DNA of 64,000 nt from an uncultured Lentisphaerota bacterium. Its GTDB lineage: Bacteria > Verrucomicrobiota > Lentisphaeria > Victivallales > UBA1829. A program made the translations under genes and the position numbers. Shown here one piece after another: positions 1,941-64,000 of the stretch (its first letter is position 1; every line of letters begins with the position of its first letter). Below the pieces are notes generated by a model. That model was given only the letters and a program-made list of their open reading frames with translations. It was not told the DNA's origin and did not search any database. The stretch lies in contig ONQZ01000004.1 of assembly GCA_900320095.1 (NCBI GenBank), forward strand, positions 4,227-68,226. Direction: 5' to 3'.

Positions 1941-1988
1941 TTTCCTTTTTCAGATTGTTTTTGTGTTGTTGAACTCGGATGATCCGGC

Positions 1989-2399
1989 TCAGAGCGGGCC
2001 GTTGCCGATTTCCGCCACCACGCCGTCCGCGAGCACGTCGCGCACGACGCCGGCGACCACCGCCGCCGTGCCGCCCGTCAGCGTGACGGTCTGGTCGTCC
2101 TTCACGTAGCAGGTCTTGTTCAGGTCGCTCAGCGCAAACGCGCCGCTGCTGACCGGGGCATAGAGGAACATGCCGGAACGGGTCTTGACGGTCTCGCCGC
2201 CGGACGCCGTGTTTTCGGCGCGGCCGACCACGGTGATGGCACCAGCGGACGTGGCGGGGATCGCTTTTCCGCTGGAGTTGATCGCGGTGATGCCACCCGC
2301 GTAGACGGTGCTGCCCGAGGCGACGGTGAATTCACGCGTGTAGTGAACGCCGCCGGCCGCGATTTCACGGGTGTCTCTGGATTCTGTGAGTGCTGACAT
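1989..2399 (-). CDS. DUF2190-like head decoration/cement protein
   Basis: 136-aa Gly/Ala/Thr-rich small protein between the scaffold/protease and the capsid gene, the usual position of DUF2190-type proteins. Confidence 0.6.
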   Translation of the reverse strand: MSALTESRDTREIAAGGVHYTREFTVASGSTVYAGGITAINSSGKAIPATSAGAITVVGRAENTASGGETVKTRSGMFLYAPVSSGAFALSDLNKTCYVKDDQTVTLTGGTAAVVAGVVRDVLADGVVAEIGNGPL

Positions 2400-2447
2400 G
2401 GTTCATGTCTCCTTCTGTGTTGTGATTGTTTTGCGCCGCTGGGCTTT

Positions 2448-3518
2448 TCAGCCGTGCATGGCGCGCTGGTATTCGTCTTTGTCAAATCCGAATTTCCGGA
2501 TCATTTCCTCGTCCGCCGCGCTCAGGCTCCGCTTCGGCGCGCGCCGTTTGTCCGGCGCGAACGCCATGCGGCCCGGCACCACGGCGGGCGCGTGCTCCAG
2601 GTAGGACGCCAGCACGGCGCAGTCCTGGGTCCTCGCCCAGTCTTCCAGCGCGTGCGTCAGCTTCCCCTCCTGAAGCCCCTGTTCGATCAGCTCCGCCTTG
2701 CGTTTTTCCTCGGCGGCGCAGACCATCGTGTCGAGCTCCTGCCGCAGGGCGGCCGCCTGCCCGGCGCGTTCCTTCACGGCATCCAGCGCCGCGGACATCG
2801 CATCGTCGGGTTCGCCGTCCGCGATGCCGAGTCCTTCGCGCATGGCGGCGATCGTGTCCGCTTTCGCCTCGATCGCGGCCGCCGTACGCTCGATCGCGCC
2901 TTCTTCGTCGTCCTCGCCGGACAGCACGATCTCGTTCCACGCCGTCTTCCCGAGCAGACGCCCGAGGGCGCGTTCGATCGGGTCCTGAAGGCGTTTCAGT
3001 TCGATGGCGTTCCGTCCGATGTCCTCCGGGTCGGCGTCGTCTCCCTCGCCGCCCGCCGCCAGGACGTCCTCGCAGTTCAGCGCGGGCTCGTTTTCCATCG
3101 CCACGCTCGTGATGCGGATCGGGCCTTCCTTCAGGCCGCGGATCACCGGCGAACAGTACCGGAAAATCTTCTCCTTCAGGAGCTCGTACGCGCCCGGCGT
3201 CCATTCCGCCCGGATGCGAAGCTCGTCGCCCTCGCGGAACAGCGTCCCGAATCCCATCGCGGCAACGCCCGACGGGATCAGCCGCAGCGCTTCGCTTTCC
3301 TCCACGCCGTGCTTTTCCGCCAGAATGTGGAGGTAATGGTTGGAGTCGATCGGGATCGCCTCGCCTTTCTTCGCCTGGTACGCCGCGATAGCGTCCAGGT
3401 CCTCCACGCTCAATCGCAGTTCATAGTCCTTTCCGTTTTTCACGAGCCGGTTCACGCCCGCATGCAGCAGAGTCCATTCCTCCGGGACTCCGTTCGCGTC
3501 CTGTTTTACAGTGCTCAT
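2448..3518 (-). CDS. Mu gpI-like prohead protease/scaffold protein
   Basis: 356 aa. N-terminal region as in the Mu I protease family (..WTLLHAGVN...IPIDSNHY..). C-terminal half is Ala/Glu/Arg-rich and coiled-coil-like, as for a scaffold. Confidence 0.75.
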   Translation of the reverse strand: MSTVKQDANGVPEEWTLLHAGVNRLVKNGKDYELRLSVEDLDAIAAYQAKKGEAIPIDSNHYLHILAEKHGVEESEALRLIPSGVAAMGFGTLFREGDELRIRAEWTPGAYELLKEKIFRYCSPVIRGLKEGPIRITSVAMENEPALNCEDVLAAGGEGDDADPEDIGRNAIELKRLQDPIERALGRLLGKTAWNEIVLSGEDDEEGAIERTAAAIEAKADTIAAMREGLGIADGEPDDAMSAALDAVKERAGQAAALRQELDTMVCAAEEKRKAELIEQGLQEGKLTHALEDWARTQDCAVLASYLEHAPAVVPGRMAFAPDKRRAPKRSLSAADEEMIRKFGFDKDEYQRAMHG

Positions 3519-3577
3519 TTCCTGCTCCTATGTTTGTTTTGTCTTGTCCCCAATGGGGTAGTAAAAATCCGTTTTCC

Positions 3578-3712
3578 GTGCCGTAGCGGAGCACGGCACA
3601 ACTGTAGTGGAGGACTTGTCCTCCGTGCCGTAGCGGAGCACGGCACTACTCGACACACTCTGTGTGTGCCCGAGCGGAGCCGGGCACAACTGTAGTGGAG
3701 GACTTGTCCTCC
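3578..3712 (+). repeat. Double-hairpin (REP/BIME-like) repeat array, locus 1
   Basis: GTGCCGTAGCGGAGCACGGCAC at 3578-3599 and 3625-3646, and GTGCCCGAGCGGAGCCGGGCAC at 3666-3687. Each of two units is followed by linker aactgtagt and palindrome GGAGGACTTGTCCTCC (3609-3624, 3697-3712). Extra ACACAC-TCT-GTGTGT hairpin at 3653-3667. Confidence 0.9.
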
Positions 3713-5100
3713 TACCAGCCGAAAATTCGGTCTTCCATGCGCCGCTGATGAGGCGGCGGCAGAGGATCGACTCCGCACGGCGCCTCGTTCCCCCTGCCTG
3801 CCGCATGGACCGCCAGCGCGAGCGCCCAGAACCGGTCCGAATGTCCGGATTCGTCGCGTTCGGCGTCGTAGCGCACGTTTCCGGCGGCGGTCACGCTCCG
3901 CACGATCTTGTGCAGGTCGTGCCGCAGCACGTCGTCGGCGACGATCCGGATGCCGCGCGATTCGAACGCCGCCCGGACCGGCATGGCAAGCGCGGCCTTC
4001 ACAGGCCCCGTAAACGTCACGCTCTCCACGCGGTATTTCCCGTGGCGTTCCTGCATCTCCTCCGCCAGCATCATCCCGATCCCGGTCGCGTCGATGCAGA
4101 GGCGTTCCAGCCGGGCGTCGTCGAGGCGGCGCGCCAGGGCGTCGGCCTGCATGCGGAACGGCATGTTTTCCATGACTTCGTATCCGCTCTGCCACAGGAT
4201 GTCCCCGATGCGCGTCAGCTCGAAATACACCCCGACGTCCCTCTTCCGCCCCACGTCGTATCCGGCGTACCGGATCGCCTTCGGATGTTCGCTCAACGCT
4301 TTCTCAAGATCGCCCGCGTCGTTTTCGCACGCGCCGATCATGCCGTAGTCCAGCAGCGACGCGCCCGCCTCCGCCGCTTCGATCAGATACTGCGTCCGCC
4401 AGGCGTCTTCCGTGCGGCATTTCGCACGCATCGTCTTCAGCCACTCTTCGCGGCTCAATTCGCTCCCGGTTACGGCGTTGACGCGTTCCACAAATCCCTC
4501 TTCCACGGCATCCAATATGCTCGTTTTGTGGACGCTCCATCCCATCGCGTTCGCACCGTGTTCCGCCTCGTGAAGCATCCGGCAGAACGGCGATTCGCCG
4601 CTTCCGTCCACGCTCAGCGCGGACACCATTTCCAGCTGGCCGCCCCATGTGGTGCAGGGCATCGCCATGTCGATCACGCGTCCGCTGTCCTTGTGCAGGT
4701 CCGCCTCGTCGATCAGGATGTCCCCGCCCTTCCCGGCGAACGCCTCGGGCGTGCTGGACAGGCTGATGACGCGGCTGCCGTTGCCGTATTCCGCCGTGTA
4801 GGCGCGGATCCCGTGCAGGGGGTCGATGACCACGGCATCCTCCCCGGCGAGTCCGCGGCAGACCGCGTTGGCCGCCGCCGCCCATTTCGCGATGTAGTCC
4901 GTGATGAACTCGCGGGCGGTGAATTCGTCGCGGCTGGTCACCCACTGCACCGTCCCCGGCCGCCGCAGGCACTTGTCGTTCACGCGGAAGCTCGTGGCGT
5001 ACGTGATGCCGATCCGGCGCGATTTCGCGTACAGCTTCATTCGCGCGTCGTCCAGGATCCACCGTTTCTGGTACGGCAGAAAGTATTCCGACAGCTTCAT
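3712..5100 (-). CDS. Phage terminase large subunit
   Basis: 462 aa. ATPase part has a Walker-B-like DILIDEADLH. C-terminal RNaseH-like nuclease part has GYDVGRKRD, IDATGIG and HSDRFWALALA. Located at the head of the capsid module. Confidence 0.85.
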   Translation of the reverse strand: MKLSEYFLPYQKRWILDDARMKLYAKSRRIGITYATSFRVNDKCLRRPGTVQWVTSRDEFTAREFITDYIAKWAAAANAVCRGLAGEDAVVIDPLHGIRAYTAEYGNGSRVISLSSTPEAFAGKGGDILIDEADLHKDSGRVIDMAMPCTTWGGQLEMVSALSVDGSGESPFCRMLHEAEHGANAMGWSVHKTSILDAVEEGFVERVNAVTGSELSREEWLKTMRAKCRTEDAWRTQYLIEAAEAGASLLDYGMIGACENDAGDLEKALSEHPKAIRYAGYDVGRKRDVGVYFELTRIGDILWQSGYEVMENMPFRMQADALARRLDDARLERLCIDATGIGMMLAEEMQERHGKYRVESVTFTGPVKAALAMPVRAAFESRGIRIVADDVLRHDLHKIVRSVTAAGNVRYDAERDESGHSDRFWALALAVHAAGRGNEAPCGVDPLPPPHQRRMEDRIFGW

Positions 5101-5374: not shown

Positions 5375-5425
5375 GTTTTTTGTTCCTCCGGTTCCGGTTT
5401 CGTGCCGCCGACATTGCTTTCCGCC

Positions 5426-5454
5426 TTGAAAAACGGCGCGTTTGGAGGTATATT
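5426..5454 (+). promoter_or_regulatory. Sigma70-type promoter upstream of transporter gene
   Basis: TTGAAA (5426-5431), 17-nt spacer, TATATT (5449-5454). Confidence 0.55.
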
Positions 5455-27628: not shown

Positions 27629-27766
27629 ATGAAAAGAACGTATCAGCCTTCCGTCATCAAACGCGCCCGCAAATATGGATTCCGTGCCAGAATGGCCACC
27701 AAGGGCGGCCGCCAGGTCCTTGCCAGAAGAAGAGCGAAAGGGCGTAAACGCCTGACCGTTATCTGA
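27629..27766 (+). CDS. rpmH: 50S ribosomal protein L34
   Basis: 45 aa, [45 protein letters not shown]. Not in the ORF track because it is under 60 aa. Confidence 0.95.
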
Positions 27767-27780
27767 GAAAGGAATACGCC

Positions 27781-28185
27781 GTGGAAATTGGGCGCAGCAG
27801 CCTGAGGAAACAGGAAAAGCTCCGCACCCGAAAGGATTTCGATGCGCTCAAGGAACACGGGAAAGCCTGCCGGGACCCGTTCTTCACGGTCCTGGTTCGG
27901 GCGGCGGAGCCGGACGATCCGGTTCAGAACCTCAGGTACGGCATCATCTGCAGCCGGAAACTGCATCATTCGGCGGTCGTGCGCAACCGCGCGAGACGCC
28001 TGATCACAGAGACCTTCCGGCTGTGCAAGGAGAGCATCCTGCCATGCGGCATCCTGGTCATTCCGCGTCGCGCCATCTTCGGCGCAAAACAGCAGGAAGT
28101 GCAGGAGCATCTGCTCCGGACACTGAAAAAAGCCGGACTGATCCGGGAAAAGCAAACAGCGGACACCCCGTCCGCGAACTCGTGA
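27781..28185 (+). CDS. rnpA: Ribonuclease P protein component
   Basis: 134-aa basic protein right after rpm[15 protein letters not shown] motif region. GTG start. Confidence 0.85.
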
Positions 28186-28400
28186 TCTTTCCCATCCGCG
28201 CGTACCGCCGCTGGATTTCCCCGCTGTTTCCCCCGTGCTGCCGGTTCACGCCGACCTGCTCCCAGTATGCGATCGAAGCCGTCAGAGTCCACGGGATTCT
28301 GCGCGGACTGGCGCTGAGCTTCTGGCGGATCCTCAGATGCAATCCCTGGTGCCGGGGCGGTTATGACCCCGTTCCTCCGAAACGTTCCAGGAAGGAATAA
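28182..28400 (+). CDS. yidD: Membrane protein insertion efficiency factor YidD
   Basis: 72 aa. [29 protein letters not shown]...RCNPW..GGYDPVP. The GTG start overlaps the rnpA stop (GTGA). Confidence 0.85.
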
Positions 28401-28403
28401 CGA

Positions 28404-30230
28404 GTGAATTTCAAATTCGACAAAGACACTGTTCTCATCGTGCTCGTCGGCTGCCTGCTTATGGGCGGTTGGCTTATCTACATGCCCAAGTACCAGGCGA
28501 AGCGCACCGCCGAATACCAGAAGATGCTGGAGGCAACCCAGCAGAACGCTCCGGCGCAGCAGGCAAACACGAATCCCGGTGCGGCTTCGGCTTCCGCTCA
28601 GACGGCTGCCGACGCCAACGCCGGACAGACCCCGTCCGAAACCGCCGCCGAAACCGTTTCCGCGCTGACGGAAACGAAGACCGTTTCCCTTGAAAACAAG
28701 CTGTTCCGCGTGACGATCGACGGCCTGACCGGTTCGCTTTCCGGCGCAAAGCTGCTGGACCCCCGCTACAAGCTCAAAGATTCCGGGGAAGCCATCGAGC
28801 TGTTCCGCGAAGGCGCGTACCGCACGTTCGAACTGAAATCCATTTCCGCGCTTGTCCCCGTCTCCCTGGACGTTCAGGAAAAAAATCCGCTCTCCGCGGA
28901 AGTCGTCCGCACGTTCGCAAACGGTCTCAAACTGACCCAGACGTTCACCCTGCCGGAAGACAACTACATGGTCGTCTGCGATTACGCCTGGACCAATCCC
29001 GCGTCCGCCGCGGTCACGGTCGACGGCCTCGGCGTCCGCCTCGCCGGTCTGCCGCAGGTCAAGGACCTCACCGGCGACAAGGTCTACAGCGAACGCCTGA
29101 ACGTCGACTTCTGCAAGGTTGGAAGCGGCATGTGCGATTCCGCCGATCCGCAGGTCAAATCCCAGGAAAAATTCGACAAGAAGACCACCTGCGACGTCCC
29201 CGTCGCCTGGATCGGTTCTTCCAATAAATATTTCGCCTCGCTCCTCTTCGCCGACAACGCAAAGCCCTTTGCGTCCACGTTCGGCGAACGCGTCTGGAAA
29301 CTCCCGGAAGGCAGCAAAAACGAAAAAGACCTCTACGCCGTGCCGTCCATGACCGGCGATTTCGGCGCCGTCACGTTCGCGCCCGGCGCGGACACCCTGA
29401 AATTCTCCCTGAAGACCTACTGCGGCCCGAAGGAAATGGCGCGCATCCGTGCGCTCGGTTCCTCCGTCATGGGCGTGATGCACATTTCCTATTATTCTTG
29501 GTTCGAGTTCATCGCGCGTCCGATGGTCATGCTCCTGAACTGGCTGAAGAGCCTCTGCGGCTCCTACGGCATCGCGATCATTCTCCTCACGCTCATCGTC
29601 CGCATCCTCTTCTGGCCGGTCACGCAGAAGGCCAACAGCTCCATGCGCCGCATGCAGAAGCTCCAGCCGAAGATCAAGGAGCTGCAGGAGAAGTACAAGG
29701 AAACTCCGATGGACACGCCGGACGACACCGCGCGCAAGAAAGCCGAGCTGAACCAGAAGATGATGGAGCTCTACCGCACCGAGAAAGTCAACCCGGTCGG
29801 CGGCTGCCTCCCCATCCTGCTTCAGATCCCCGTTTTCATCGCGCTCTACTCCGCGCTGGATTCCGCCGTCGAACTCCGCAACGTGCCGTTCCTCTGGTGC
29901 ACCGACCTCTCGCGTCCCGACCTCGTCGGCCCGACGCTTCCCTTTGCCCTGCCCTTCATCGGGCAGGTCGGATTCCATCCGCTCGTGATCGCCATGACGG
30001 TCCTCATGATCGTTCAGCAGAAGATGACGCCCACCGCGGGCGATTCCGCACAGCAGAAGATGATGATGCTCATGCCCGTCGTCATGCTGTTCATGTTCTA
30101 CAACCTCCCGTCCGGCCTGACGCTTTACTGGACGGTCAGTCAGATATTCAGCATCCTTCAAATGAAATACGGGCAATTCGCCGCAAAGCGGGATGAATCG
30201 CGTCAGGCCAGTAAACCGCAGAAGGCTTAA
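28404..30230 (+). CDS. yidC: Membrane protein insertase YidC
   Basis: 608 aa. N-terminal TM segment, large periplasmic domain, then the conserved core (YGIAIILLTLIVRILFWPVTQK, GGCLPILLQIPVFIALY, NLPSGLTLYW). Confidence 0.92.
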   Translation: MNFKFDKDTVLIVLVGCLLMGGWLIYMPKYQAKRTAEYQKMLEATQQNAPAQQANTNPGAASASAQTAADANAGQTPSETAAETVSALTETKTVSLENKLFRVTIDGLTGSLSGAKLLDPRYKLKDSGEAIELFREGAYRTFELKSISALVPVSLDVQEKNPLSAEVVRTFANGLKLTQTFTLPEDNYMVVCDYAWTNPASAAVTVDGLGVRLAGLPQVKDLTGDKVYSERLNVDFCKVGSGMCDSADPQVKSQEKFDKKTTCDVPVAWIGSSNKYFASLLFADNAKPFASTFGERVWKLPEGSKNEKDLYAVPSMTGDFGAVTFAPGADTLKFSLKTYCGPKEMARIRALGSSVMGVMHISYYSWFEFIARPMVMLLNWLKSLCGSYGIAIILLTLIVRILFWPVTQKANSSMRRMQKLQPKIKELQEKYKETPMDTPDDTARKKAELNQKMMELYRTEKVNPVGGCLPILLQIPVFIALYSALDSAVELRNVPFLWCTDLSRPDLVGPTLPFALPFIGQVGFHPLVIAMTVLMIVQQKMTPTAGDSAQQKMMMLMPVVMLFMFYNLPSGLTLYWTVSQIFSILQMKYGQFAAKRDESRQASKPQKA

Positions 30231-30257
30231 CACCGCCCGAAAAACCCGGAGAATTCA

Positions 30258-31085
30258 ATGGAACTCGAAGAAACAGCCGCGGCCGGCAATCAGGCCATGG
30301 AAAACGCAGGAGCCGCAACGGAAGCGGCGGAAACCGCAACGACCGATGAGATCAAGGCCGTCCCCATGGACGACGCCTCCGCCGCGGACGACGGCGGATT
30401 CGATGAGATCGACAAAAGCAACGAGACCGCGCAGCCCCGCGCAGAACGTCCCCGCAGGAATCCCCCGCCGGTCAAACCAGCTTCCCAGGAATCCATGGAG
30501 GAAGCCAGAAGCGTCCTCGCCCACATGCTTGATTTCCTCGGCATCGACGCCAACATCCGCGTGGAAAACAAGCCCCGCTCCGTGAACCTCTACGTCTCCA
30601 CCGAGGAACCCGGCCGCGTGATCGGACACCACGGCAAGACGCTGGAAAACCTCCAGCTCATCGTGAACCGCATTATGCAGAAGACCGATTCCGAGTTCCC
30701 GAAACTCTACATCGACATGGAAGGTCCCCGCGAACGCCGCTCAGAACGCCGTTCTGAGCGCACCGACCGTGTCGAGCGCGGCGGCGAACGCTCCGAACGC
30801 GGCGAACGCCCCCGCAGGGAGTTCCGCAGCGAACGCAGAGACCGTTTTGAAGGCCGTCGCGGATCGTCGTTCTCCCACGACGAAGTCCTCCGCCAGCAGG
30901 CGCTTGACGCCGCCAAGGAAGTCCACCAGTGGGGCGCTCCGAAGACCCTGCCTCCGATGAACTCCCACGACCGCAGAATTGTCCACATCACGCTCGAAGA
31001 CGATGCCGCGCTGACCACCAACAGCGTCGGCGACGGCGAAAAACGCTCCGTCGTGATCGCGCTGAAGGAAGAAGTCAACGCCTGA
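30258..31085 (+). CDS. khpB: Jag/KhpB-type RNA-binding protein (KH + R3H domains)
   Basis: KH-like GRVIGHHGKTLENLQLIVNRI and R3H region NSHDRRIVHITLEDD. Canonical position after yidC. Acidic N-terminus and an RSER-rich linker. Confidence 0.85.
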   Translation: MELEETAAAGNQAMENAGAATEAAETATTDEIKAVPMDDASAADDGGFDEIDKSNETAQPRAERPRRNPPPVKPASQESMEEARSVLAHMLDFLGIDANIRVENKPRSVNLYVSTEEPGRVIGHHGKTLENLQLIVNRIMQKTDSEFPKLYIDMEGPRERRSERRSERTDRVERGGERSERGERPRREFRSERRDRFEGRRGSSFSHDEVLRQQALDAAKEVHQWGAPKTLPPMNSHDRRIVHITLEDDAALTTNSVGDGEKRSVVIALKEEVNA

Positions 31086-31192: not shown

Positions 31193-31214
31193 ATGATTGT
31201 TTTACGTAACAAAC

Positions 31215-31242
31215 TTGAAAAACGGAAAACAGGCGGTATATT
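31215..31242 (+). promoter_or_regulatory. Sigma70-type promoter upstream of LRR lipoprotein gene
   Basis: TTGAAA (31215-31220), 16-nt spacer, TATATT (31237-31242). Confidence 0.5.
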
Positions 31243-31287
31243 AATCGAAAAGACATGCTGCCGACCTGCCGATACGAGGGGTCCAAT

Positions 31288-32181
31288 ATGAACAAACATT
31301 CTTTTTTCGAGCAATTTTCAACGGTTGCCTGCCTGGTCGCTGCGTCCGCCGTCCTGATCGTGTTTCTTGTTGCCTGCGGCGAGGAACCGGAGGAGCCGGA
31401 TCCTGACTCGGAAACATCCGCTTCCGTTGAAACTGATGTGGATTCCGCAATGGAAACAGTCCCATCCGCAAATATGGAGCCCGGGGACAAGTTCATCTTT
31501 CCGTCCGAAGGCCTCGTATGCGTGGAACGGGTCTATTACGACGCCGGTCCCACACCCGAAACGGTAAAGGTCGTTTATCTTCGCGCGCCCGAAAACGCGG
31601 TCGATCTGGTGATCCCGGATGGCGTGACGGAGATCGGAAGTGAAGCGTTCGCGAATTGCGAAAACCTGGAATCGGTCGTGTTCCCGAACACGGTCAATAT
31701 GATTCCGGCCAATGCCTTTTATGTCGCCCAGATAGGTCTGCGTCCTCGTTCTCCGAAGCTGAAATCGGTCGTGCTTCCGGTACACGCCGCCATTGGGTCC
31801 TATGCGTTCTATGGCCTTCAATCCCTGGAGAGCGTCACGGTGAACGGGGACGGCAAAGCCGCCGCGTTGCCGCGGGAAGATGCTGCCATCGGGGACAACG
31901 CGTTCGGCTTTTGCCTTAAACTGAAGGAGATCGTGATCCCGGAGGGGGTCGAAGCCATTGGCGACAAGGCTTTCTCCACCTGTCAGAAGCTGGAACGCGT
32001 TTCCCTGCCCGCAAGTCTGAAGTCCATCGGACGCCTCGCTTTTTTGAATTGTTCCTCGCTGAGGGAGATTTCGATTCCGAACGGCGTGACGAATTTTGCG
32101 TACGACGCTTTTTTTGGCACCCCATGCAAGGAATCCGTCCGCAGGGAAATGGAATCCCGCCTTGCCGCCGTTCAGCCATAG
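31288..32181 (+). CDS. BspA-type leucine-rich-repeat lipoprotein
   Basis: Lipobox LVAC|G after a hydrophobic signal. Repeats of the form IP.GVT.IG..AF..C..L..V (LRR_5/BspA-like). Confidence 0.8.
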   Translation: MNKHSFFEQFSTVACLVAASAVLIVFLVACGEEPEEPDPDSETSASVETDVDSAMETVPSANMEPGDKFIFPSEGLVCVERVYYDAGPTPETVKVVYLRAPENAVDLVIPDGVTEIGSEAFANCENLESVVFPNTVNMIPANAFYVAQIGLRPRSPKLKSVVLPVHAAIGSYAFYGLQSLESVTVNGDGKAAALPREDAAIGDNAFGFCLKLKEIVIPEGVEAIGDKAFSTCQKLERVSLPASLKSIGRLAFLNCSSLREISIPNGVTNFAYDAFFGTPCKESVRREMESRLAAVQP

Positions 32182-36073: not shown

Positions 36074-36235
36074 GGAAAATACCTCGCGGATGTGTGTATT
36101 ATATTGAAAAATAGTTTTTGCCGGAAAAAAATAATATACCACGGAATGGATTCTTTTTCAAGCGGAAACGTACCCGAAGAAGAGAAAAACGCATCCCGCG
36201 CGGCTTTGTTCCGCCGTGCGGCGCCATGCTCAAGT

Positions 36236-39098: not shown

Positions 39099-41393
39099 TC
39101 ACTGAGGCGGAGTTTCCGCTTTCTCCGCGGATGTGTCCGGGGTCTCCGTCATCAAATGCCCGTAGTGTTCCTGAACGTACTGATTGACCGGGCTGTAGGG
39201 AAACGCGTCTTTCGAGATCCACTTCACGCTCGCCGGGATGTCGATCTCGCGGATGTGGCAGCCCCGGAACGCCTCTTTCCCGATGCGCTCCAGGCCGTCC
39301 GGCAGGATGACTTTCCGCACGTTCCAGCAACCGCGGAAGGCGCCCGCCCCGATCTCCTTCACGCCCGCCGGGATCGTGATCACCGGTATGGAACAGATTT
39401 CGAACATCCTGTCGACGACCCGTTCCATATTGTCCGGGAGCACGAGCTCCTTGGCGCGGCAGGCGCTGAACGCGCCGTCCTCGAAATGCGTTACCGTGTC
39501 CGGCACGACGATACGGTCGAAGGTACACCCGGCGAACGCATTGGACGCGATTGTGCGGATATTCTCCGGCACCGTGAAAACCCCCGCCGTGTCCCTCGGC
39601 GCTTCGAGCAGGCGTCCCGTGACGGAATTGAACAGCGTGCCGTCGTCCAGCCGCTTGAACCTGCTGTCCGGCGGGAAGACCATATTTTCCCAGTGCATCC
39701 CGATCCCGTCCAAATCCTCAATGTCCCCGTGAAAAACGAGTTTGTGTTCCTTCGGTCCGTACGCATACCACCAGCCGAACGCGTTTCTTCCGATGCGCTT
39801 CACGCTCGCCGGCAGTTCGATATGGGACAGGCTCGTTGCGAAAAACGCATTGTCCCCGATAGATTCGACGCCGTCCGGGAACTCCACGCTCCGCAGCAGA
39901 TGGCATTCAGAAAAGGCTTTTTGTCCGATCGTCTTCGCGCCCGCCGGGATACGAATACTCTTCAGAGTCTTACAGCCGGAAAACATGCCGTCCGAAATCG
40001 AATTCATCCCGTCCGCAAGCTCGCACTTCGTCAGGGAGACGCAGTTCCTGAAAATATCCGGTTCAATCCGGGAAGGCGCACCGGCGATTTCCACCTCGGT
40101 CAGACGTACGTCCTCAGCAAACGCGTTGGATCCGATAAAATTTACGCCCGCCGGGATCCGGATCTTCTCCAGGGACCGGCAGTGCTCGAACGCGCCGTCG
40201 CCGATGGCTTCCAGCGATTCCGGGAGCGTGATCCGGCTCAGGGAAACGCATCTCTCAAACGCGCCCGCCCCGATCCGCATAACGTCCGGGAGCTCGACAT
40301 CCCTCAGAAAACTGCATCTGCCGAATCCCCAGACGGACGGAGACGGATTGCCGCTGCGGCCCTGCTTGTGCGTGCGGACGCGGAGCAGACTGAGGCATCC
40401 GTCGAACCCCTCCAGCGAGGCGTCCCGCGCCACTACGACCTCCTCCAGCCGTATGCAGTTTTTGAACGAGACCGACTGGATCCCGACCGGGATCGAGGCA
40501 TATTTCAGCGTGGAACTGCCGGGAAATTCGAATTTGGCGGCATAAGGATTCAAATCGTGTTCGAGAAGGAGTTTTCGAAGGGTTTCATCCACGGCGGGGA
40601 CACTCTCCGGGATCGGACCGAAGGTATCAATGGATCTCAGGGCGGAACACCCCGCGAAAGCACTGCCGTCGCACCGGCGGAGCGTATGCGGCAGCGCGAT
40701 CATCTTCAGCGAGGTGCAGTCCTGAAACGCATGATAACCGAGTCCGGCAAGATTGGCGGGCATGCGGACGTCCGACAACGCCGTGCACCCGTGGAACGCA
40801 TGCTTTCCGATCACCAGCACATTGTCCGGGATCCTGATGCGTTTCAGGCTCGTGCACCCGGCAAAAGCCCCCTCGCCGATGGAAACCAGCGTAGAAGGCA
40901 GCGTAACGCGTTTCAGCTGCGTACATTTCCAAAACGCTTTCGCGCCGATGTGCGCGACGCCTTCCGGCACCTCGAATTCGACCGTGTCCTCCGGGACCAC
41001 CCATAGTGTCCTGCTGGGAGGATCGCCGGAATCAAGATACTCCGGGGAAGGATACGGCATGTGGTGCGGACCCGCCAGATAATCGTCCGGGAAGGGCCAA
41101 GCCGTCGTTTTCGGGCGCCGGTCATGGATGAGGTAGAACGGGAATGAGGAGAAAATCTCTTCGTACCTCAAATCCTGGTATCGTTCGAGGTCTTCCGGAA
41201 AAAGCCGGAAACTGAAGCGGGCGCGAACCGGAACGAACGGTACGCCGAGATTGCAGATGATGCGCCACGGCAGCAGGTAAAGTATCACGGAGCCGATGAA
41301 CATGGCCAGGAACAGGAAGGACATGCACGAAATGCGGCGCAATTTGGACCGGTGCAGAGAACGCGGCTCGTCGGATGTATGATCTTGAGGCAT
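39099..41393 (-). CDS. Large BspA-type leucine-rich-repeat protein with N-terminal membrane anchor
   Basis: 764 aa. TM segment ISCMSFLFLAMFIGSVILYLL, then more than 15 LRR_5-like repeats (P..V..IG..AF..C..L..I.IP). Confidence 0.85.
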   Translation of the reverse strand: MPQDHTSDEPRSLHRSKLRRISCMSFLFLAMFIGSVILYLLPWRIICNLGVPFVPVRARFSFRLFPEDLERYQDLRYEEIFSSFPFYLIHDRRPKTTAWPFPDDYLAGPHHMPYPSPEYLDSGDPPSRTLWVVPEDTVEFEVPEGVAHIGAKAFWKCTQLKRVTLPSTLVSIGEGAFAGCTSLKRIRIPDNVLVIGKHAFHGCTALSDVRMPANLAGLGYHAFQDCTSLKMIALPHTLRRCDGSAFAGCSALRSIDTFGPIPESVPAVDETLRKLLLEHDLNPYAAKFEFPGSSTLKYASIPVGIQSVSFKNCIRLEEVVVARDASLEGFDGCLSLLRVRTHKQGRSGNPSPSVWGFGRCSFLRDVELPDVMRIGAGAFERCVSLSRITLPESLEAIGDGAFEHCRSLEKIRIPAGVNFIGSNAFAEDVRLTEVEIAGAPSRIEPDIFRNCVSLTKCELADGMNSISDGMFSGCKTLKSIRIPAGAKTIGQKAFSECHLLRSVEFPDGVESIGDNAFFATSLSHIELPASVKRIGRNAFGWWYAYGPKEHKLVFHGDIEDLDGIGMHWENMVFPPDSRFKRLDDGTLFNSVTGRLLEAPRDTAGVFTVPENIRTIASNAFAGCTFDRIVVPDTVTHFEDGAFSACRAKELVLPDNMERVVDRMFEICSIPVITIPAGVKEIGAGAFRGCWNVRKVILPDGLERIGKEAFRGCHIREIDIPASVKWISKDAFPYSPVNQYVQEHYGHLMTETPDTSAEKAETPPQ

Positions 41394-41469
41394 GAAAACT
41401 CCTCACACGTTCGAATGAAAAGGCTTTTCGATAGTATTCCATAAATATACACCCTGTAACCGCTTTTTC

Positions 41470-41830
41470 AAGAAAAAAAGAGAAAACAGGCAGATTGTGA
41501 TTTATTGTTCATAGATAAGTTTTAATAGATATGATAAATATAAAATTAAAAGTGAAATAAGAGAAAAAAATATTGAAATAAGATTTTATATTAAAAACAA
41601 AACTGAAAATAGATAATACTGTTTTCAATGATAAGACAGAGCGATTAAATCGCTTTATATTTATTTCGAAATTGAGATAGAATGATAATATGCTGATTAT
41701 TTAAATAAGATAAGAATATATAAAAAAAGAAATGACAAAATGAATGAATAAACTGATTTTCAAGGAATAGCGGGAATATCCGTTGATTCTGACAGATAAT
41801 TTGTCAAGTATTTGATAATCAATATAAAAG
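41470..41830. other. Extremely AT-rich non-coding island with co-oriented WGATAAK motifs
   Basis: About 360 bp of roughly 20-25% GC (by eye) in a ~60% GC context. No ORF of 60 aa or more. Eight plus-strand GATAA cores at 41513, 41532, 41611, 41629, 41683, 41708, 41794 and 41813; no TTATC seen. Confidence 0.9.
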
Positions 41831-41864
41831 AAATGACGGACAAACCGTCTGATTCGTCCGTCAT
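41824..41864 (-). terminator. Rho-independent terminator of thiI
   Basis: ATGACGGAC (41833-41841) pairs with GTCCGTCAT (41856-41864). On the minus strand the stem is followed by TTTCTTTT. Confidence 0.7.
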
Positions 41865-41883
41865 ATCGTCATTTCACTGATTT

Positions 41884-43140
41884 TCAATCATTTATATCGT
41901 GTGACGGAATGTCGGTCAAACCGTCATCCGTCACCAGCTTGATCTCATCAAAAGCCTTCTGTATCGCCGCGTCCATGTCGGGTATCTTCGATTCCTCGAA
42001 CTCCACAAAATGAAGCTTGGCATGAATGACAGGAGAAGGCGGTGCAAAGACCGTGCAGCTGTCCGCCATAGGTTCGATGGAAATGTCAAATGTTCCAATG
42101 TCTTCCGCACGGGCGATCGTCTCCAGTTTATCCATGCCGCAGAGTGGACGCACGATCAGATCCGGCACGGCACGGTCGATCACGGACATGTTCACGACCG
42201 TCTGGCTGGCGACCTGACCGATCGCCTCGCCGGTCACGATCCCGTACAGATTATGCTTTCTGCAGAGTTTCGAGGCGATGCGCATCATCATGCGCCGGTA
42301 CAGGACGGTGCGGAATTTCGGATCGCAGTTGTCGCGGATGAGTTTCTGAACCTCGGAAAGATTGCAGGCATACAGCACGCCGTGCGGCTGGAACCTGTTG
42401 ATGATCTTCGCGATACGCCAGACTTTCGTGACGGATTCGATCGGCGTATATGGATAACTGTGGAACGTAAGAAAGTCCATCCGGCAGCCGCGTTTCATCG
42501 CCATCGCGCACGCCACCGGCGAATCGATCCCGCCGGAAAGCATGCCGAGCAGCGGAGAATTGGAGCCGACCGGAAGGCCGCCGCGCGCCTTGACCGTTTC
42601 GAGGAAGATCGTGGAATTCTTTTCGCGTATCTCGACGCCGATGGAAATATCCGGATTCATCAGGTCGACCTGGATCTTATCCTCCCCGAACATTTCTTCG
42701 ATCATGGAAGCTGTTTCGATTTCGATCTCTTTGGAACGCAACGGAAAACTCTTGTCGGAACGCCGTGCGCGCGTCCGGAATTTCACTGGACGACCGAGAG
42801 TCTCAAGTTTCTGTTCGAACAACGGTTTCACGGCATTCTTAATATGATCCAGAACGGCTTCGATGGTGCGTTCCCCCTCGATACAGAAAGAAAACGAATC
42901 CAGGCCGAAACAGTCTCTCAGGCGTTCTTTCAGATACTCCTGTTCCTCGTCCGTGAAAACCTCAAATTCGTTTTTATGTATGAAAATACGGCCGCGCATT
43001 TTCACATAATTCAGACCCGGAACACGGTCTTTCGTCATGCGTTTCATATTGCGGATCAGCGCATTTTCAAACATGCTGCGATTGTTTCCTTTTGTCGCGA
43101 TCTCGTTGTAACGGCAGATGATGGAATTGTAGGATGCCAT
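41884..43140 (-). CDS. thiI: tRNA 4-thiouridine(8) synthase ThiI (THUMP + PP-loop, no rhodanese domain)
   Basis: 418 aa. PP-loop LSGGIDSPVA. N-terminal ferredoxin-like/THUMP region. Confidence 0.92.
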   Translation of the reverse strand: MASYNSIICRYNEIATKGNNRSMFENALIRNMKRMTKDRVPGLNYVKMRGRIFIHKNEFEVFTDEEQEYLKERLRDCFGLDSFSFCIEGERTIEAVLDHIKNAVKPLFEQKLETLGRPVKFRTRARRSDKSFPLRSKEIEIETASMIEEMFGEDKIQVDLMNPDISIGVEIREKNSTIFLETVKARGGLPVGSNSPLLGMLSGGIDSPVACAMAMKRGCRMDFLTFHSYPYTPIESVTKVWRIAKIINRFQPHGVLYACNLSEVQKLIRDNCDPKFRTVLYRRMMMRIASKLCRKHNLYGIVTGEAIGQVASQTVVNMSVIDRAVPDLIVRPLCGMDKLETIARAEDIGTFDISIEPMADSCTVFAPPSPVIHAKLHFVEFEESKIPDMDAAIQKAFDEIKLVTDDGLTDIPSHDIND

Positions 43141-43159: not shown

Positions 43160-44230
43160 TTAAACAGCGCGTCCGGCTGTAATATGTACGATTTGTGAAT
43201 ATTGCGTCAGAGGATTATCGGGTATTTCCGTAAAGGAACAGAATACCTGTTTTGCTTCCGATATCTTATGATAAAATGCTTCCTGCGTCTTTTTGTCAAG
43301 ATCGCCGGTGGCATCATCCACGATAACGACTGTATTATCCTTTGACATCGAATGATTTTTGACGATATCGAATTCCGCTTCCTTCAGCGCGAACGATGTC
43401 GCGCGGCACTGTCCGCGGGAACCGTACAATTTCAAGGATTTTCCATCTGCGACAAAATCGAAATCGTCAAGATGCGGTCCGGTTGTCATGTATCCGTTCA
43501 GTCTGTCTTTTTCCAGATTCCGTTCGAGTTTTTCCTCAAAGATTTTCGGATCGGAAAGCTCATGAACCGTCTTCAATTTCAACTGCAGATCGGCGAGTTC
43601 CGGCTTCAGTTCCGCCATGATGTTCCGCATGAAATCCGATAAGATTCTGAGGTGGATTTCACGCGCCTGGACGATCTCCGCGCCGTATTTTGCGAGCGCC
43701 GGATGATACGACCGGATCACATCGTTGTTCGTATCCTTCATCCGAAGCAGACAATTTCTGTTTTTGACCCCGTTATAATACGCCTGCAGCGCGGTAAAAT
43801 ATCCATGGTCCAGCATGGAAATGAACATATCGAGAAATTTTCTTCTTACCTGGGACCGCCCGGTGATGATTTCCGGATCGTCCGGCAGAAACGTGACCGT
43901 ATTGAACGAACCGGCGAACTCGCTGGCACGCGGGACATGTTTTCCGTCCACGACCAGTTTCCGTGTCTCGCCGAGCTCGACCGCGAGCTGGCGCGACCAG
44001 TCCCGGAATGAAACGGAAGCTCCGACGATCGCGGACGGCGCATGAATTTTTATCATTTCCGAGGTGCGCGAAGTACGGAACGACCTCAGATTCGCGAGAT
44101 AAAACAACGCTTCCAGCAGACTGGTCTTTCCCTGGCCGTTCGATCCGCAGAGAAACACCGTCGGTGCCTCAAAACGCAGGGACACCGATTCGAACAACCG
44201 GAAATTCTGCAGAACCAGCGAATTTACCAT
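43160..44230 (-). CDS. recF: DNA replication and repair protein RecF
   Basis: Walker A GSNGQGKTSLLEA, then FYLANLRSFRT. Canonical position downstream of dnaN. Confidence 0.9.
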   Translation of the reverse strand: MVNSLVLQNFRLFESVSLRFEAPTVFLCGSNGQGKTSLLEALFYLANLRSFRTSRTSEMIKIHAPSAIVGASVSFRDWSRQLAVELGETRKLVVDGKHVPRASEFAGSFNTVTFLPDDPEIITGRSQVRRKFLDMFISMLDHGYFTALQAYYNGVKNRNCLLRMKDTNNDVIRSYHPALAKYGAEIVQAREIHLRILSDFMRNIMAELKPELADLQLKLKTVHELSDPKIFEEKLERNLEKDRLNGYMTTGPHLDDFDFVADGKSLKLYGSRGQCRATSFALKEAEFDIVKNHSMSKDNTVVIVDDATGDLDKKTQEAFYHKISEAKQVFCSFTEIPDNPLTQYSQIVHITAGRAV

Positions 44231-44386: not shown

Positions 44387-45484
44387 TTATTTGTTCCTCA
44401 TCGGCATGATGACATACAGGAAGCCGTCGCCGCTTTCGATCGCGATCGGGCTCATGACGTCGTTCACCTTGATGAACACGTTGTCGACCTGGATGTGCTT
44501 GAAGGGATCCAGGAAGAAGTTCGAGTTGAACGAAGCGGACATCTCCTCGCCGTCGTACTGGATGGGCACGCTTTCGCGGCCTTCGCCGATGTTGCTGTTC
44601 GTTTCGAAGAGCATGCTGTCCGATTTGAACGTGAGGGAGACTTTCGGCGAACCGCTTTCCGCGAGGGTCACACAGATGAGTTCGAGCGCATAGATCACGC
44701 TTTCGCAGGAGACTGTCACGGTCTGCTTGAAGGAAGCCGGAATGACCTGGCGGTAGTTCGGGTAGTTGCCTTCGATGAGCTTGGAGGTGATCACGGATGC
44801 GCCGACCTCGAACACGACCTGGTTTTCGGCGATGTTGATCGCGACTTCGCCTTCCTTTTCGAGGAGGCGCTTGAGCTCGTTCGCGGCCTTTTGGGTGATG
44901 ATGATATCGCCCTCGGAACCTTCGGGAAGCTCTTCGAAGACTTTTTCGCAAAGGGCAAGGCGTTTGCCGTCGGTGGCGACCGCGGTGAATTTGCCGTCGC
45001 GGACGGAGAACAGGATGCCCTGCAGGACCTTGCGGGAATCTTCGAGGCTGGCGGCGTATGCGATGCGTTCGATGATAACCGCCATGTCCGCCTGCTTCAT
45101 GGAGAAGGAACGGATGAATTTGACCTCGTCCTTCTTCGGATAATCGGCGGGATTGAGGCCGAGGAGCATGATGGACGCGGTGCCGCACTTGATCGTGGAG
45201 TGGAAGTTGTCGCCGCTTTCGATCTCGATGAAGTCGCCGCGGAACTTGGAAACGAGGGTGAGCATCTTCTTGGCGGGAAGTGTGGTCTCGCCGGCCTCGA
45301 TGACCTCGGCGTCGACGACCGTTTCCATGCGGATCTCAAGGTCGGTGCCGGTGAGTTTGAGCTTGCCGTCGGCCGCCTCGAACAGGATATTGGAAAGCAC
45401 GGGGAGGGTATTGCGCGTATTGATGATATTGCCGACCTTCTGCAGCGCCTTGAGCATGGTCTCTCTGGAAATCTTGATTTTCAT
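44387..45484 (-). CDS. dnaN: DNA polymerase III beta sliding clamp
   Basis: 365 aa. Starts MKIKISRETMLKALQKV. Three-domain clamp length, with recF downstream. Confidence 0.95.
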   Translation of the reverse strand: MKIKISRETMLKALQKVGNIINTRNTLPVLSNILFEAADGKLKLTGTDLEIRMETVVDAEVIEAGETTLPAKKMLTLVSKFRGDFIEIESGDNFHSTIKCGTASIMLLGLNPADYPKKDEVKFIRSFSMKQADMAVIIERIAYAASLEDSRKVLQGILFSVRDGKFTAVATDGKRLALCEKVFEELPEGSEGDIIITQKAANELKRLLEKEGEVAINIAENQVVFEVGASVITSKLIEGNYPNYRQVIPASFKQTVTVSCESVIYALELICVTLAESGSPKVSLTFKSDSMLFETNSNIGEGRESVPIQYDGEEMSASFNSNFFLDPFKHIQVDNVFIKVNDVMSPIAIESGDGFLYVIMPMRNK

Positions 45485-45740
45485 GGTGGGTTGCCTCCGA
45501 TCTTCCGGCGGACTTTTCTGTGCCGCCCGGAAAAGTTATTGAGATTGGTTTCTGATATGATTTTAACCTGAATTGAGCAAATGTAATAGGAATAGGGGCT
45601 GTCAATATGTCAACAACCCTTCGTTCCCGCTTCAAACACTTTTTTCGGAAGATGTTCACAAAATGGTTTGACTTTGTTCGGAAACGGTGTTCTATTAACA
45701 CTGTGGATTTTTATTTAACCCCTGTTGGCAGGTGACGAAC

Positions 45741-61966: not shown

Positions 61967-62033
61967 TTTCCGCGCTGATTTCCGTGTTTTTCCGTGTTTT
62001 CAGCGTTTTTTTCTCTTTTTTTCAGTTTCCACC

Positions 62034-62061
62034 TTGACTTTCCACGATTTGATGGTATAGT
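62034..62061 (+). promoter_or_regulatory. Sigma70-type promoter of tRNA-Val
   Basis: TTGACT (62034-62039), 16-nt spacer, TATAGT (62056-62061). Confidence 0.55.
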
Positions 62062-62086
62062 AAATACCATTCTCAATTTGAATTGA

Positions 62087-62163
62087 GGGCGTATAGCTCA
62101 GTTGGTTAGAGCGCCACGTTGACATCGTGGAGGTCGTAGATTCGAGTTCTACTACGCCCACCA
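62087..62163 (+). tRNA. tRNA-Val (anticodon GAC), CCA encoded
   Basis: Manual fold. Acceptor GGGCGTA/TACGCCC, D-arm GCTC-AGTTGGTTA-GAGC, anticodon stem CCACG/CGTGG with loop TTGACAT, T-arm GTAGA-TTCGAGT-TCTAC, then ACCA. Confidence 0.92.
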
Positions 62164-62177
62164 TTTTGCACCAAGCT

Positions 62178-62216
62178 AAACCGTTGGAATTCAGCAAGAT
62201 TCCAGCGGTTTTTCTT
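62178..62216 (+). terminator. Rho-independent terminator after tRNA-Val
   Basis: AAACCGTTGGAAT (62178-62190) pairs with ATTCCAGCGGTTT (62199-62211) with one G-U pair, followed by a T-run. Confidence 0.75.
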
Positions 62217-62410
62217 TTTCTACGCACACCCTGCCACAACCCGCAAAAACCTGCCAAAACAGGCCCTAAAAGGGGCGAATTACGGAAAAATTACGGAAAG
62301 CTTTAGGTTTTAAATCAGTGAGCTTGGCCGAGCACAAATAATTGTATTCCGAAAAAAACGTCTCACCCCCCTAGTTTTCGTGATCCGGGACGCTTTTCCC
62401 CTGTCCGACG

Positions 62411-62515
62411 CACATAGGTGCCCACATACGGGGCACATACGCCTCCTTTTCCTCGTTATCTGAGCAATCTGAGGTGAAATCTGTGTTTTACATACGTTAC
62501 ATACGTTACATACGC
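62411..62515 (+). repeat. Iteron-like ACATA(C/G)G repeats (six copies, three in perfect 9-bp tandem)
   Basis: CACATAGG 62411-62418; CACATACG 62423-62430 and 62434-62441; TACATACGT x2 plus TACATACGC in tandem at 62489-62515. Confidence 0.85.
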
Positions 62516-62607
62516 CTGTTTTCCACTCCTGAACACGTTTTTCATGCGATCTCATCGCTTCTGAACATGGGGAACTTCCCTGTTCGAAAAACGAGCAACT
62601 CCTCTCC

Positions 62608-62829
62608 TCAGTATTCCAGGATGTCTTCAATCCGGCACGAGAGGACCTGGGCAAGCGAGCGAAGTGTCGTACCTGCACCTGCGGCCTTGTTGATGTCTTT
62701 GGAGCGTCCCTCGTACTGCTGAATCGTGCGGAGATTCACCCCGGCCAGTTCACTCAACTTCCGTTGCGTCAGCTTATTATTCTTTCGCCGGACCTTAAAT
62801 GGAGCGACAGCGCCTTTTTGAGAAAAAAT
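62608..62829 (-). CDS. XRE-family helix-turn-helix protein (no canonical start codon; possible pseudogene)
   Basis: Manual translation: ..KVRRKNNKLTQRKLSELAGVNLRTIQQYEGRSKDINKAAGAGTTLRSLAQVLSCRIEDILEY*. The frame is open from 62856, but there is no in-frame ATG/GTG/TTG before the HTH. An ATT lies at 62829, and poly-A runs flank it. Confidence 0.45.
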   Translation of the reverse strand: MFSQKGAVAPFKVRRKNNKLTQRKLSELAGVNLRTIQQYEGRSKDINKAAGAGTTLRSLAQVLSCRIEDILEY

Positions 62830-62946
62830 GAAAAAAGTCCAAAAAAAGTAATCAGGCTACATCCTCACGCAAGATGCACCATTCCCTTGCCACATGATGC
62901 CACTATTTGCAACAAGCGCAACGCGTTTATAATCAATATGTTACAT

Positions 62947-62974
62947 TTGTATTTCTCGATTTTTATGCTATAGT
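62947..62974 (+). promoter_or_regulatory. Sigma70-type promoter (extended -10) of island NTPase gene
   Basis: TTGTAT (62947-62952), 16-nt spacer, TGC-TATAGT (-10 at 62969-62974). Confidence 0.5.
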
Positions 62975-63041
62975 ATCTGTATTCCTGATGGCAGAGTTGT
63001 GCGAACAGGGTAATAAGTTCAGAACATGAAAGGCAAATATC

Positions 63042-64000
63042 ATGAAAGAACTTGATTTTGATGTCCTGCGGGAGAAAATCTCCGCGCAGGTGGGAGATCC
63101 GACCTTTACGGACGGAGAAACTAAGAAACCGGAGCTGAACCAGCAGTTCTTCGCCAGATTCGCAGCCGCGGTCTACAAACCGATCTTCGAAAAGATCGAA
63201 GGCGCATTCTATCTCTACGTGCCGGAGACCGGGTTATGGGTGCGTCAGGACGAACCGGCTATGATCGACCGAATCAGCCTCCTGATGATGAGATACGCCG
63301 ATGAAACTTCGGATTCCTTCATCAACCGCAAAAGGAACGTCGGTACAATCAAGAGCATTCTGAGGTTCATGCAGGCGGACGCGTGCTGCGGGCGTGAAAA
63401 TGCTTTCGCGCACAAAGGTGAACCATTCATTCACTGCGGCAACGGCGTAATCACGTTCCCCATTCAGGATGACGGACGCCGCAAGCCGGTCCTAATGCCG
63501 TTCGACCCGAAGTACATGAGCCGGAACCGGACTGAATGCAACTTCCGCGAGGACGCTGTCTGCCCGGAGTTTCTGAACCGCCTGATAAAGCCCGCCATGT
63601 CCGAGGACGATCTCAACCACTTTCAGCAGTATGTCGGGCAGTGCCTTCTCGGCGTGAACCACAGCCAGACCATCTTGCTTATGGTCGGGACTGCGGGCGG
63701 AGGCAAGAGTACGGCCGTCAATATCATTGAGAAGTTGGTCCATCGCCAAAACTGCACGGAACTGCGTCTCGAACAGATGGGAAGCCGCTTCGAAACACAG
63801 CGCCTGCTGGGAAAGACGCTCCTGACCGCGAAGGACGTCCGTTCGGATTTCCTGTCCACGAAATACGCCTTCAAGCTCAAGGCCCTGACTGGCAAGGATA
63901 CGATGACGATTGAACGCAAGGGCAGCAATGAAGCATCGGACATCTGCGGGGAGTACAATGTTATTATAACGGCGAACAACACCCTGTGCGTGGTTTTGGA
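63042..64000 (+). CDS. Phage/plasmid primase-helicase family NTPase (P4 alpha C-terminal / D5-like), partial at window end
   Basis: ORF open to the window edge, so it is absent from the track. D5_N-like region, then Walker A LLMVGTAGGGKST and ..LLTAKDV..KLKALTGKDTMTIERKG.. as in TIGR01613-type proteins. Confidence 0.75.
   Translation, partial: MKELDFDVLREKISAQVGDPTFTDGETKKPELNQQFFARFAAAVYKPIFEKIEGAFYLYVPETGLWVRQDEPAMIDRISLLMMRYADETSDSFINRKRNVGTIKSILRFMQADACCGRENAFAHKGEPFIHCGNGVITFPIQDDGRRKPVLMPFDPKYMSRNRTECNFREDAVCPEFLNRLIKPAMSEDDLNHFQQYVGQCLLGVNHSQTILLMVGTAGGGKSTAVNIIEKLVHRQNCTELRLEQMGSRFETQRLLGKTLLTAKDVRSDFLSTKYAFKLKALTGKDTMTIERKGSNEASDICGEYNVIITANNTLCVVL

Follow-up and report, generated by a model that had tools for sequence, protein, structure and literature searches.

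A long AT-rich spacer at a variable BspA-type LRR gene locus in an uncultured rumen Victivallales bacterium

AT-rich DNA upstream of promoters is bound by nucleoid-associated proteins and by the xenogeneic silencers H-NS, Lsr2, MvaT, Rok and MucR (PMC8476142, PMC9410896). Here we describe an AT-rich, non-coding stretch of about 350-490 bp (the island) from an uncultured rumen Victivallales bacterium, which lies between the thiI gene and a gene for a BspA-type leucine-rich repeat (LRR) protein. The analyzed DNA (the window) is 64,000 nucleotides long. Like the targets of silencers, the island is a low-GC tract (22-26% GC vs about 60% in the genome) immediately upstream of the promoter of a variable surface-protein gene, and its composition is conserved rather than its sequence. 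Unlike those targets, the LRR gene that follows is not AT-rich (59.7% GC) and so does not have a foreign composition. To our knowledge, no AT-binding silencer family has been described in Lentisphaerae. An earlier note on this DNA, made from the letters alone, had proposed that the island might be a replication origin, a set of regulatory sites for the LRR gene, or the target of an AT-binding silencer. The latter two are possible roles. A literature search on Victivallales and LRR proteins found nothing relevant.

The intergenic region between thiI and the LRR gene

The island is the largest and most AT-rich of the low-GC tracts in the window (500 bp with 26% GC), the nine other tracts being 100-240 bp long with 33-36% GC, and its length is 2-5 times that of every other intergenic AT tract, whether in the window or in the related loci. 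The GC content of positions 41470-41830 is 0.219, with 50-bp minima of 0.12-0.14. Within the spacer core, which extends from the terminator of thiI to the -35 hexamer of the LRR promoter (Table 1), the 50-bp windows range from 12 to 36% GC and the sense (minus) strand is T-rich. The island contains no ORF of 60 aa or more, and those in the AT core are of 39 aa or less and of low complexity. These results confirm the AT-rich non-coding island that the earlier note had placed between the terminator of thiI and the beginning of the LRR gene. An Rfam search of the island at a permissive threshold gave chance-level matches only (best E 0.14-0.37, far below the gathering scores), and we rejected a structured RNA or a small gene, as there was neither a match to a known RNA family nor a conserved ORF. 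Tandem repeats were not found in the island, and a 10-11.5 bp periodicity, which would indicate phased A-tracts and curvature, was absent from all of 12 islands. A promoter island was also rejected (6 promoter-like sites in the island vs 3.4 expected).

Four independent assemblies agree on every base of the island, including a run of seven T residues next to the promoter, and hence the island is not an assembly artefact and has no length or orientation variants. An invertible promoter with phase variation was likewise rejected on the basis of this identity, and the best flanking inverted repeat is 19 nt long with 79% identity. Note that the four contigs with identical DnaN are clonal copies and say nothing about conservation. 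Proteins identical to ThiI and DnaN are also present on rumen metagenome contigs. The contigs of two other assemblies have calculated ends near 63.4-63.6 kb of the window. The region 62000-64000 has a GC content of 46-54% and is without long ORFs, with a tRNA-like translation artefact around 62000-62257. At the other end of the window, Mu-like prophage genes (major head subunit gpT, protease I and terminase large subunit) were found on the minus strand at 1032-5100.

All of the functional elements flanking the island are read on the minus strand. The thiI gene is the last of the dnaN-recF-thiI run, and its stop codon (41886-41884) is followed after 20 nt by a hairpin at 41864-41833 that was detected with a terminator scan and has the stem and the tail of an intrinsic terminator; this terminator is conserved in the 13 related loci described below. 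An 18-nt word of the terminator (41832-41849) is copied at 41908-41925, inside the 3' end of the thiI coding region. Two further words, ACTGATTTTCAA and AAAAGAAATGAC, recur exactly, 101-124 bp deeper in the island (41752-41763/41876-41887 and 41725-41736/41826-41837), and TTGAAAATCAGT, in the conserved-block region 41753-41788, is found again at 41876-41887. The only short repeats in the island are these words from the terminator and 3' thiI (families D3-D5), and their recurrence hints at an old partial duplication. An internal duplication as the source of the GATAA pairs described below was rejected, because the sequences between the motifs are unrelated. A perfect 6-3-6 palindrome, AGCGATTTAATCGCT, at 41640-41654 is the only hairpin containing G and C in the middle of the island, and it is not kept in sister species.

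The best promoter match of the region consists of the -35 hexamer TTGAAA (41471-41466), a 16-nt spacer and the -10 hexamer TATATT (41449-41444), with the seven T residues immediately upstream, and it sits 50 nt ahead of the LRR ATG. The promoter is kept in the relatives, even in those with different LRR paralogues, and the ribosome-binding site is kept in sister species. The pattern CTTGAAA-N15-19-TATAWT occurs four times in the window, compared with 0 expected in shuffles, and therefore we regard it as an ordinary housekeeping promoter of the organism. Besides the present copy, one copy is upstream of the other BspA gene (31214), one is upstream of proS (36133), and another lies at 5425; all of them precede genes. 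The extended consensus across the four copies, CTTGAAAAA-N15/16-(G)GTATATT, looks like the housekeeping promoter form of the Victivallales lineage. The other BspA gene (31255-32181) is preceded by a promoter of this type but by no long AT tract, indicating that such a tract is not needed for LRR promoters generally.

The earlier note had also judged by eye that thiI and recF are lower in GC than the rest of the window, and the codon composition agrees with this. The GC content is 0.52 in thiI (GC3 0.67) and 0.50 in recF (GC3 0.59), compared with a GC3 of 0.82-0.91 in yidC, metG, glgB and secDF; uppS is also low (GC3 0.69). The LRR gene (GC 0.597, GC3 0.75) is close to the genome.

Table 1. Features of the thiI-LRR intergenic region and its surroundings in the window
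Feature	Coordinates	Strand	Remarks
LRR gene, BspA-type	39099-41393	-	764 aa; Pfam LRR_5 5e-111; N-terminal hydrophobic anchor (translation)
Ribosome-binding site GAGGAG	41399-41404	-	5 nt ahead of ATG 41393
Sigma-70-type core promoter CTTGAAAAAGCGGTTACAGGGTGTATATT	41444-41472	-	10/12 consensus matches
Promoter-consensus copy	5425-5454	+	
Promoter-consensus copy	31214-31242	+	
Promoter-consensus copy	36133-36162	-	
Promoter-consensus copy	41444-41472	-	
AT-rich spacer core	41472-41822	none	about 350 bp, from terminator to -35 hexamer
GATAA pair 1, TTATCATATCTATTAAAACTTATCT	41513-41538	-	each half missing in 2 of 4 sister species
Conserved block TATCTATTAA	41531-41522	-	13 species; between the sites of pair 1
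GATAA pair 2, TTATCATTGAAAACAGTATTATCT	41611-41635	-	first sense-strand site unique here; second kept in 2 of 4 sister species
GATAA pair 3	41683-41714	-	25-bp spacing; 41709 in conserved block, 41684 unique here
Conserved block TCTTATCTTATTTA	41715-41702	-	13 species; contains GATAA 41709
Conserved block TTGAAAATCAG	41763-41753	-	sliding conservation, 13 species
Conserved block AATCAACGGAT	41788-41778	-	sliding conservation, 13 species
GATAA pair 4, sense strand TTATCAAATACTTGACAAATTATCT	41794-41819	-	first site conserved; second unique here
Conserved thiI 3' end and terminator	through 41799		sliding conservation, 13 species
Candidate IHF-type match TATCAAATACTTG	41805-41817	-	exact match to consensus WATCAANNNNTTR; overlaps GATAA 41814
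thiI intrinsic terminator	41823-41864	-	14-pair stem (6 G-C pairs), 4-nt loop, tail TTCTTTTATA
thiI	41884-43140	-	418 aa, tRNA 4-thiouridine synthase; Pfam ThiI 2.4e-57, ThiI_fer, THUMP
recF	43160-44230	-	
dnaN	44387-45484	-	

The island and the replication origin

In being AT-rich, non-coding and near dnaN, recF and the rpmH-yidC cluster, the island is similar to a bacterial oriC. It is the most AT-rich DNA of the window, dnaN and recF are 1.3-3.7 kb away, and the rpmH-rnpA-yidD-yidC-jag cluster (27629-31085, with dnaN and recF 13 kb further) is 10-14 kb from the island, the core of which would melt easily. These points speak for the suggestion of the earlier note that chromosomal replication starts in the island or that it serves as a DNA-unwinding element, with the GATAA words as degenerate halves of DnaA boxes. 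Unlike an oriC, however, the island is without DnaA boxes, a nearby dnaA gene, a skew switch and sequence conservation.

The relaxed scan that the earlier note had called for gave no match to the DnaA box TTATCCACA with two or fewer mismatches on either strand of 41350-41950, and all eight GATAA sites have at least three mismatches to the box TGTGGATAA. In the whole 64 kb, the boxes with one or no mismatch were at chance level (5 vs 5.05 expected), scattered and not clustered. Upstream of dnaN (45485-45731) there was one DnaA-box match, with two mismatches, and a cluster of boxes was found upstream of neither dnaN nor rpmH. The very AT-rich DNA that an unwinding element requires is present, but no boxes adjoin it. 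The Pfam scans of all long ORFs revealed no dnaA in the 64 kb, and the island is located downstream of dnaN-recF-thiI, not upstream of dnaN. Cumulative GC skew had no extremum at the island. The orientation-independent skew was about the same on the two sides, with -0.021 over 20 kb on the left and -0.018 over 22 kb on the right, a weak skew that limits the power of the test. The per-gene analysis showed that GC skew tracks the coding strand (third-position skew -0.13 to -0.19, with C-rich coding strands; the plus strand carries the genes at 6-14 kb), and a raw GC-skew plot of this genome is largely a readout of gene orientation. The sequence of the island is not conserved among relatives, and in the relative from another genus only an ordinary, short intergenic tract is found at this place. 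As judged from these sequence features, the island is not a replication origin, and we consider an origin or unwinding element at this place extremely unlikely. The comparison serves as a corrective: AT-rich DNA close to dnaN, recF and rpmH, in a genome that is otherwise GC-rich, resembles an origin, but the island fails every sequence test for one. A dif site was rejected as well, because only the AT-rich half resembles dif by eye.

Related loci and the GATAA words

We scanned species-representative genomes and obtained 13 loci from rumen Victivallales/Lentisphaeria MAGs (L003-L015), in which the ThiI identity is 90-98% for 12 loci and 62% for one (L014, from a different genus). A metagenome scan with the central island pattern gave one chance match and one duplicate of L006, and no new relatives. 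Profiling of 11 close relatives placed the largest low-GC stretch of every locus behind thiI (370-550 bp, GC 25-30%). The distance from the terminator to the -35 hexamer is 314-362 bp in the nine genomes with a recognisable promoter (eight relatives and the window; the distance in L015 was measured from the alignment). The tract of L014 measures only 180-300 bp, and no LRR gene is found downstream.

The gene behind the tract differs among the relatives. An orthologue of the 764-aa LRR protein (LRR764) is present at 92-96% identity in L004, L005, L006 and L015 and at 69% identity in L009, and a truncated copy with 77% identity is found in L010. Different BspA paralogues with about 30% identity lie behind the tract in L007, L008 and L012. 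L003 and L011 have no LRR gene, and the island adjoins tRNA-Leu in the former and the 3' end of an amine oxidase gene in the latter. In both, the breakpoint is within the promoter-proximal part of the island, so that the tract is cut at its promoter end; it is still 380-400 bp long. These sequence comparisons show that the locus after thiI is hypervariable and that the LRR gene has been swapped or deleted in some species.

When the core was compared with that of the four alignable sister species, the G/C positions were 0.71 identical and the A/T positions 0.85, compared with 0.74-0.76 for the four-fold sites of thiI. Because the G/C identity is close to that of the four-fold sites, the core is taken to evolve near neutrally. 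Taken together, the sequence comparisons show that the position, length and composition of the tract are kept in the 13 species, with most of its sequence changing at an approximately neutral rate. Such a rate, together with the many indels in the island among sister species, the lack of an RNA family, ORF, tandem repeat or curvature signal, and the persistence of the tract without the downstream gene in L003 and L011, is what would be expected if the spacer were functionless apart from the terminator and the promoter, having drifted to the AT mutational equilibrium of a GC-rich genome and not yet been deleted. However, bacterial genomes tend to delete useless DNA, and the length of 314-362 bp and the extreme composition have been kept across 13 species in a tract 2-5 times longer than the other intergenic AT tracts of the window and the related loci. 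In addition, several short blocks are conserved across all species: besides the 3' end of thiI with its terminator and the blocks in Table 1, they include the -35 hexamer. A functionless spacer is therefore unlikely in our estimation, although it deserves some weight.

The GATAA words start on the plus strand at 41514, 41533, 41612, 41630, 41684, 41709, 41795 and 41814 (the earlier coordinates, one base lower, marked the W of WGATAAK), and no TTATC was found on the plus strand in 41401-41900. Accordingly, of the eight same-strand WGATAAK motifs described previously, the eight GATAA words and the absence of TTATC were reproduced, whereas only seven sites fit WGATAAK, the exception at 41532 being TGATAAA. 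The island holds 8 of the 26 plus-strand GATAA words of the 64 kb. From its base composition (A 0.48, T 0.30, G 0.16, C 0.06), 1.8 GATAA are expected on the plus strand and 0.3 TTATC, that is, GATAA on the minus strand. The strand bias of 8:0 is mostly explained by this composition, since A exceeds T and G exceeds C. The enrichment against a shuffled background depended on the model: dinucleotide shuffles gave 2.33 +/- 1.44 expected copies (P(>=8) = 0.001), which upholds the enrichment, whereas order-2 and order-3 Markov models expect 4.55 and 4.89 copies (Poisson P 0.09-0.12), which does not. Some 5-mer containing G or C gets eight copies in 12.6% of the shuffles. Thus, there is a moderate excess of GATAA over the composition background.

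The pairing of the words was examined in a similar way. If eight positions are drawn at random, a single 2-bp bin takes three gaps with P = 0.04 and a single 8-bp bin takes four with P = 0.09, and by this measure the pair spacing is only marginally unusual. In island shuffles, four loose pairs have P = 1.7e-4, a pattern defined after seeing the data, and the three TTATCA-N12/13-TTATCT units of the sense strand compare with 0.004 expected; these three exact units provide the repeated motif at fixed spacing that characterizes an operator array, in a pattern that was also defined post hoc.

In the relatives, identity is 0.819 in the motif columns and 0.816 in the remainder of the core (P = 0.52 in a permutation test), so that the sites are not more conserved than the flanking DNA, as those of an operator array would be. 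Each GATAA site is broken in at least one of the five alignable genomes, and three of the eight (41795, 41684 and 41630) are unique to the window genome; it is usually the C of TTATC that varies. The second site of pair 4 reads ATAACA in sister species. Neither the 18-19 bp spacing nor the composite pattern of pairs occurs in any of the 21 other loci. Sites 41814 and 41709 fall in blocks conserved across the 13 species. The TTATC counts are 8, 6, 5, 6, 7, 6 and 4 in the LRR764-type loci and 2, 2, 0, 2, 1 and 1 elsewhere, a split that largely coincides with the shared ancestry of the islands. The sharing of motifs between genome pairs (0.25-0.5) equals the neutral decay of 5-mers at 80-85% identity. 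The comparison of sequences thus indicates that the GATAA pairing is confined to one species and is unsupported by comparative evidence, and both the background-level conservation of the motif columns and the absence of the pairs from the 21 loci weaken the earlier proposal that paired binding sites form an array.

We nevertheless weighed the possibility that the TTATC(A/T) words of the sense strand form a homotypic site cluster for a sequence-specific regulator of LRR764, arranged in TTATCA-N12/13-TTATCT units with fast turnover. The dinucleotide-shuffle excess (8 observed vs 2.3 expected) and the three exact paired units are consistent with such a cluster, as is the restriction of the TTATC excess to loci in which the downstream gene is an LRR764 orthologue. 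The island of L009 is barely alignable to that of the window, yet has 6 TTATC and 0 GATAA (P = 0.005). Moreover, two of the pairs were completed by clustered genome-specific substitutions, e.g. ATAACA -> TTATCT, and two sites lie within the blocks conserved across the 13 species. On the other hand, the motif columns are conserved no better than the background, none of the sites is intact in all five alignable species, the informative C varies, and the shared motifs decay at the neutral 5-mer rate; the 18-19 bp spacing occurs in no relative and misfits helical phasing, the higher-order models expect 4.5-4.9 copies, and the pattern was picked post hoc. On balance, such a cluster seems improbable. 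The more specific idea that a Lentisphaerae regulator or an AT-hook-like silencer binds a fast-turnover TTATC(A/T) cluster with 18-19 bp pairs, and in this way might switch the BspA-type LRR protein on and off in the rumen, is a speculation that we likewise regard with considerable doubt.

The preferred reading and comparison with known systems

The arrangement and the comparative data are best accommodated if the island is an extended promoter-upstream region at a hypervariable locus for BspA-type LRR surface proteins, a reading that we hold to be somewhat probable. On the minus strand, the order is the thiI stop codon, the terminator, a T-rich spacer of about 350 bp, the promoter, the leader and the LRR ATG. 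The near-consensus housekeeping promoter, CTTGAAAAA-N16-TATATT, would drive the LRR gene, with a leader of about 40 nt carrying GAGGAG before the ATG. The spacer would act by its composition rather than by the GATAA words, as easily melted DNA suited to nucleoid-protein binding, and it would insulate the LRR promoter from the dnaN-recF-thiI unit, or else silence or modulate this promoter. Nucleoid proteins may bind the spacer. The conserved blocks, including the IHF-like consensus and TCTTATCTTATTTA, would be the only candidates for specific sites. The excess and the pairing of GATAA appear to be mainly lineage-specific, and we infer that they result from the skewed composition and from descent from a motif-rich ancestor.

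The link between the tract and the LRR gene is suggested by the short tract in L014, which has no LRR gene, and by the cut at the promoter end in L003 and L011. Several observations stand against an extended promoter-upstream region: the three exact TTATCA-N12/13-TTATCT units are hard to obtain by chance in shuffles, the TTATC excess is confined to LRR764-type loci, the tract of 380-400 bp persists in the two species without an LRR gene, the other BspA gene of the window has the promoter type but not the tract, and there are no phased A-tracts. What the comparison brings out is that a clade of uncultured rumen Victivallales keeps an AT tract of 0.4-0.5 kb before a locus at which BspA-type LRR genes are exchanged or lost between species. 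Should the tract control expression, the regulation of surface variation could be approached from here in a lineage without genetics.

Three kinds of described binding sites share some features with the island. The Fur box (GATAATGATAATCATTATC) is built from GATAAT hexamers, and the island contains four GATAAT, two of them within TGATAAT. In the island, however, the copies are all on one strand, with no inverted or adjacent hexamers, since TTATC is absent from the plus strand, and the downstream gene is not iron-related; a Fur box was rejected because the 19-bp inverted GATAAT arrangement is missing. The direct-repeat operators of response regulators of the OmpR/PhoB type (about 11-bp spacing) and the LytTR type (about 21-bp spacing) are likewise same-strand paired repeats upstream of a promoter, whereas the spacing in the island is 18-19 or 25 bp, the pairs are unconserved in sister species, and the sites are 40-350 bp upstream of the -35 hexamer. 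The IHF-type consensus match is found at the same place in 8 of the 13 loci, compared with 0.10 expected per island. Unlike an IHF site, this match is about 340 bp from the promoter, directly after the terminator, and it is a consensus match only, in AT-rich DNA. Among the known systems, the island is a further example of an AT-rich promoter-upstream region, from an unstudied lineage, and as such it is real but ordinary.
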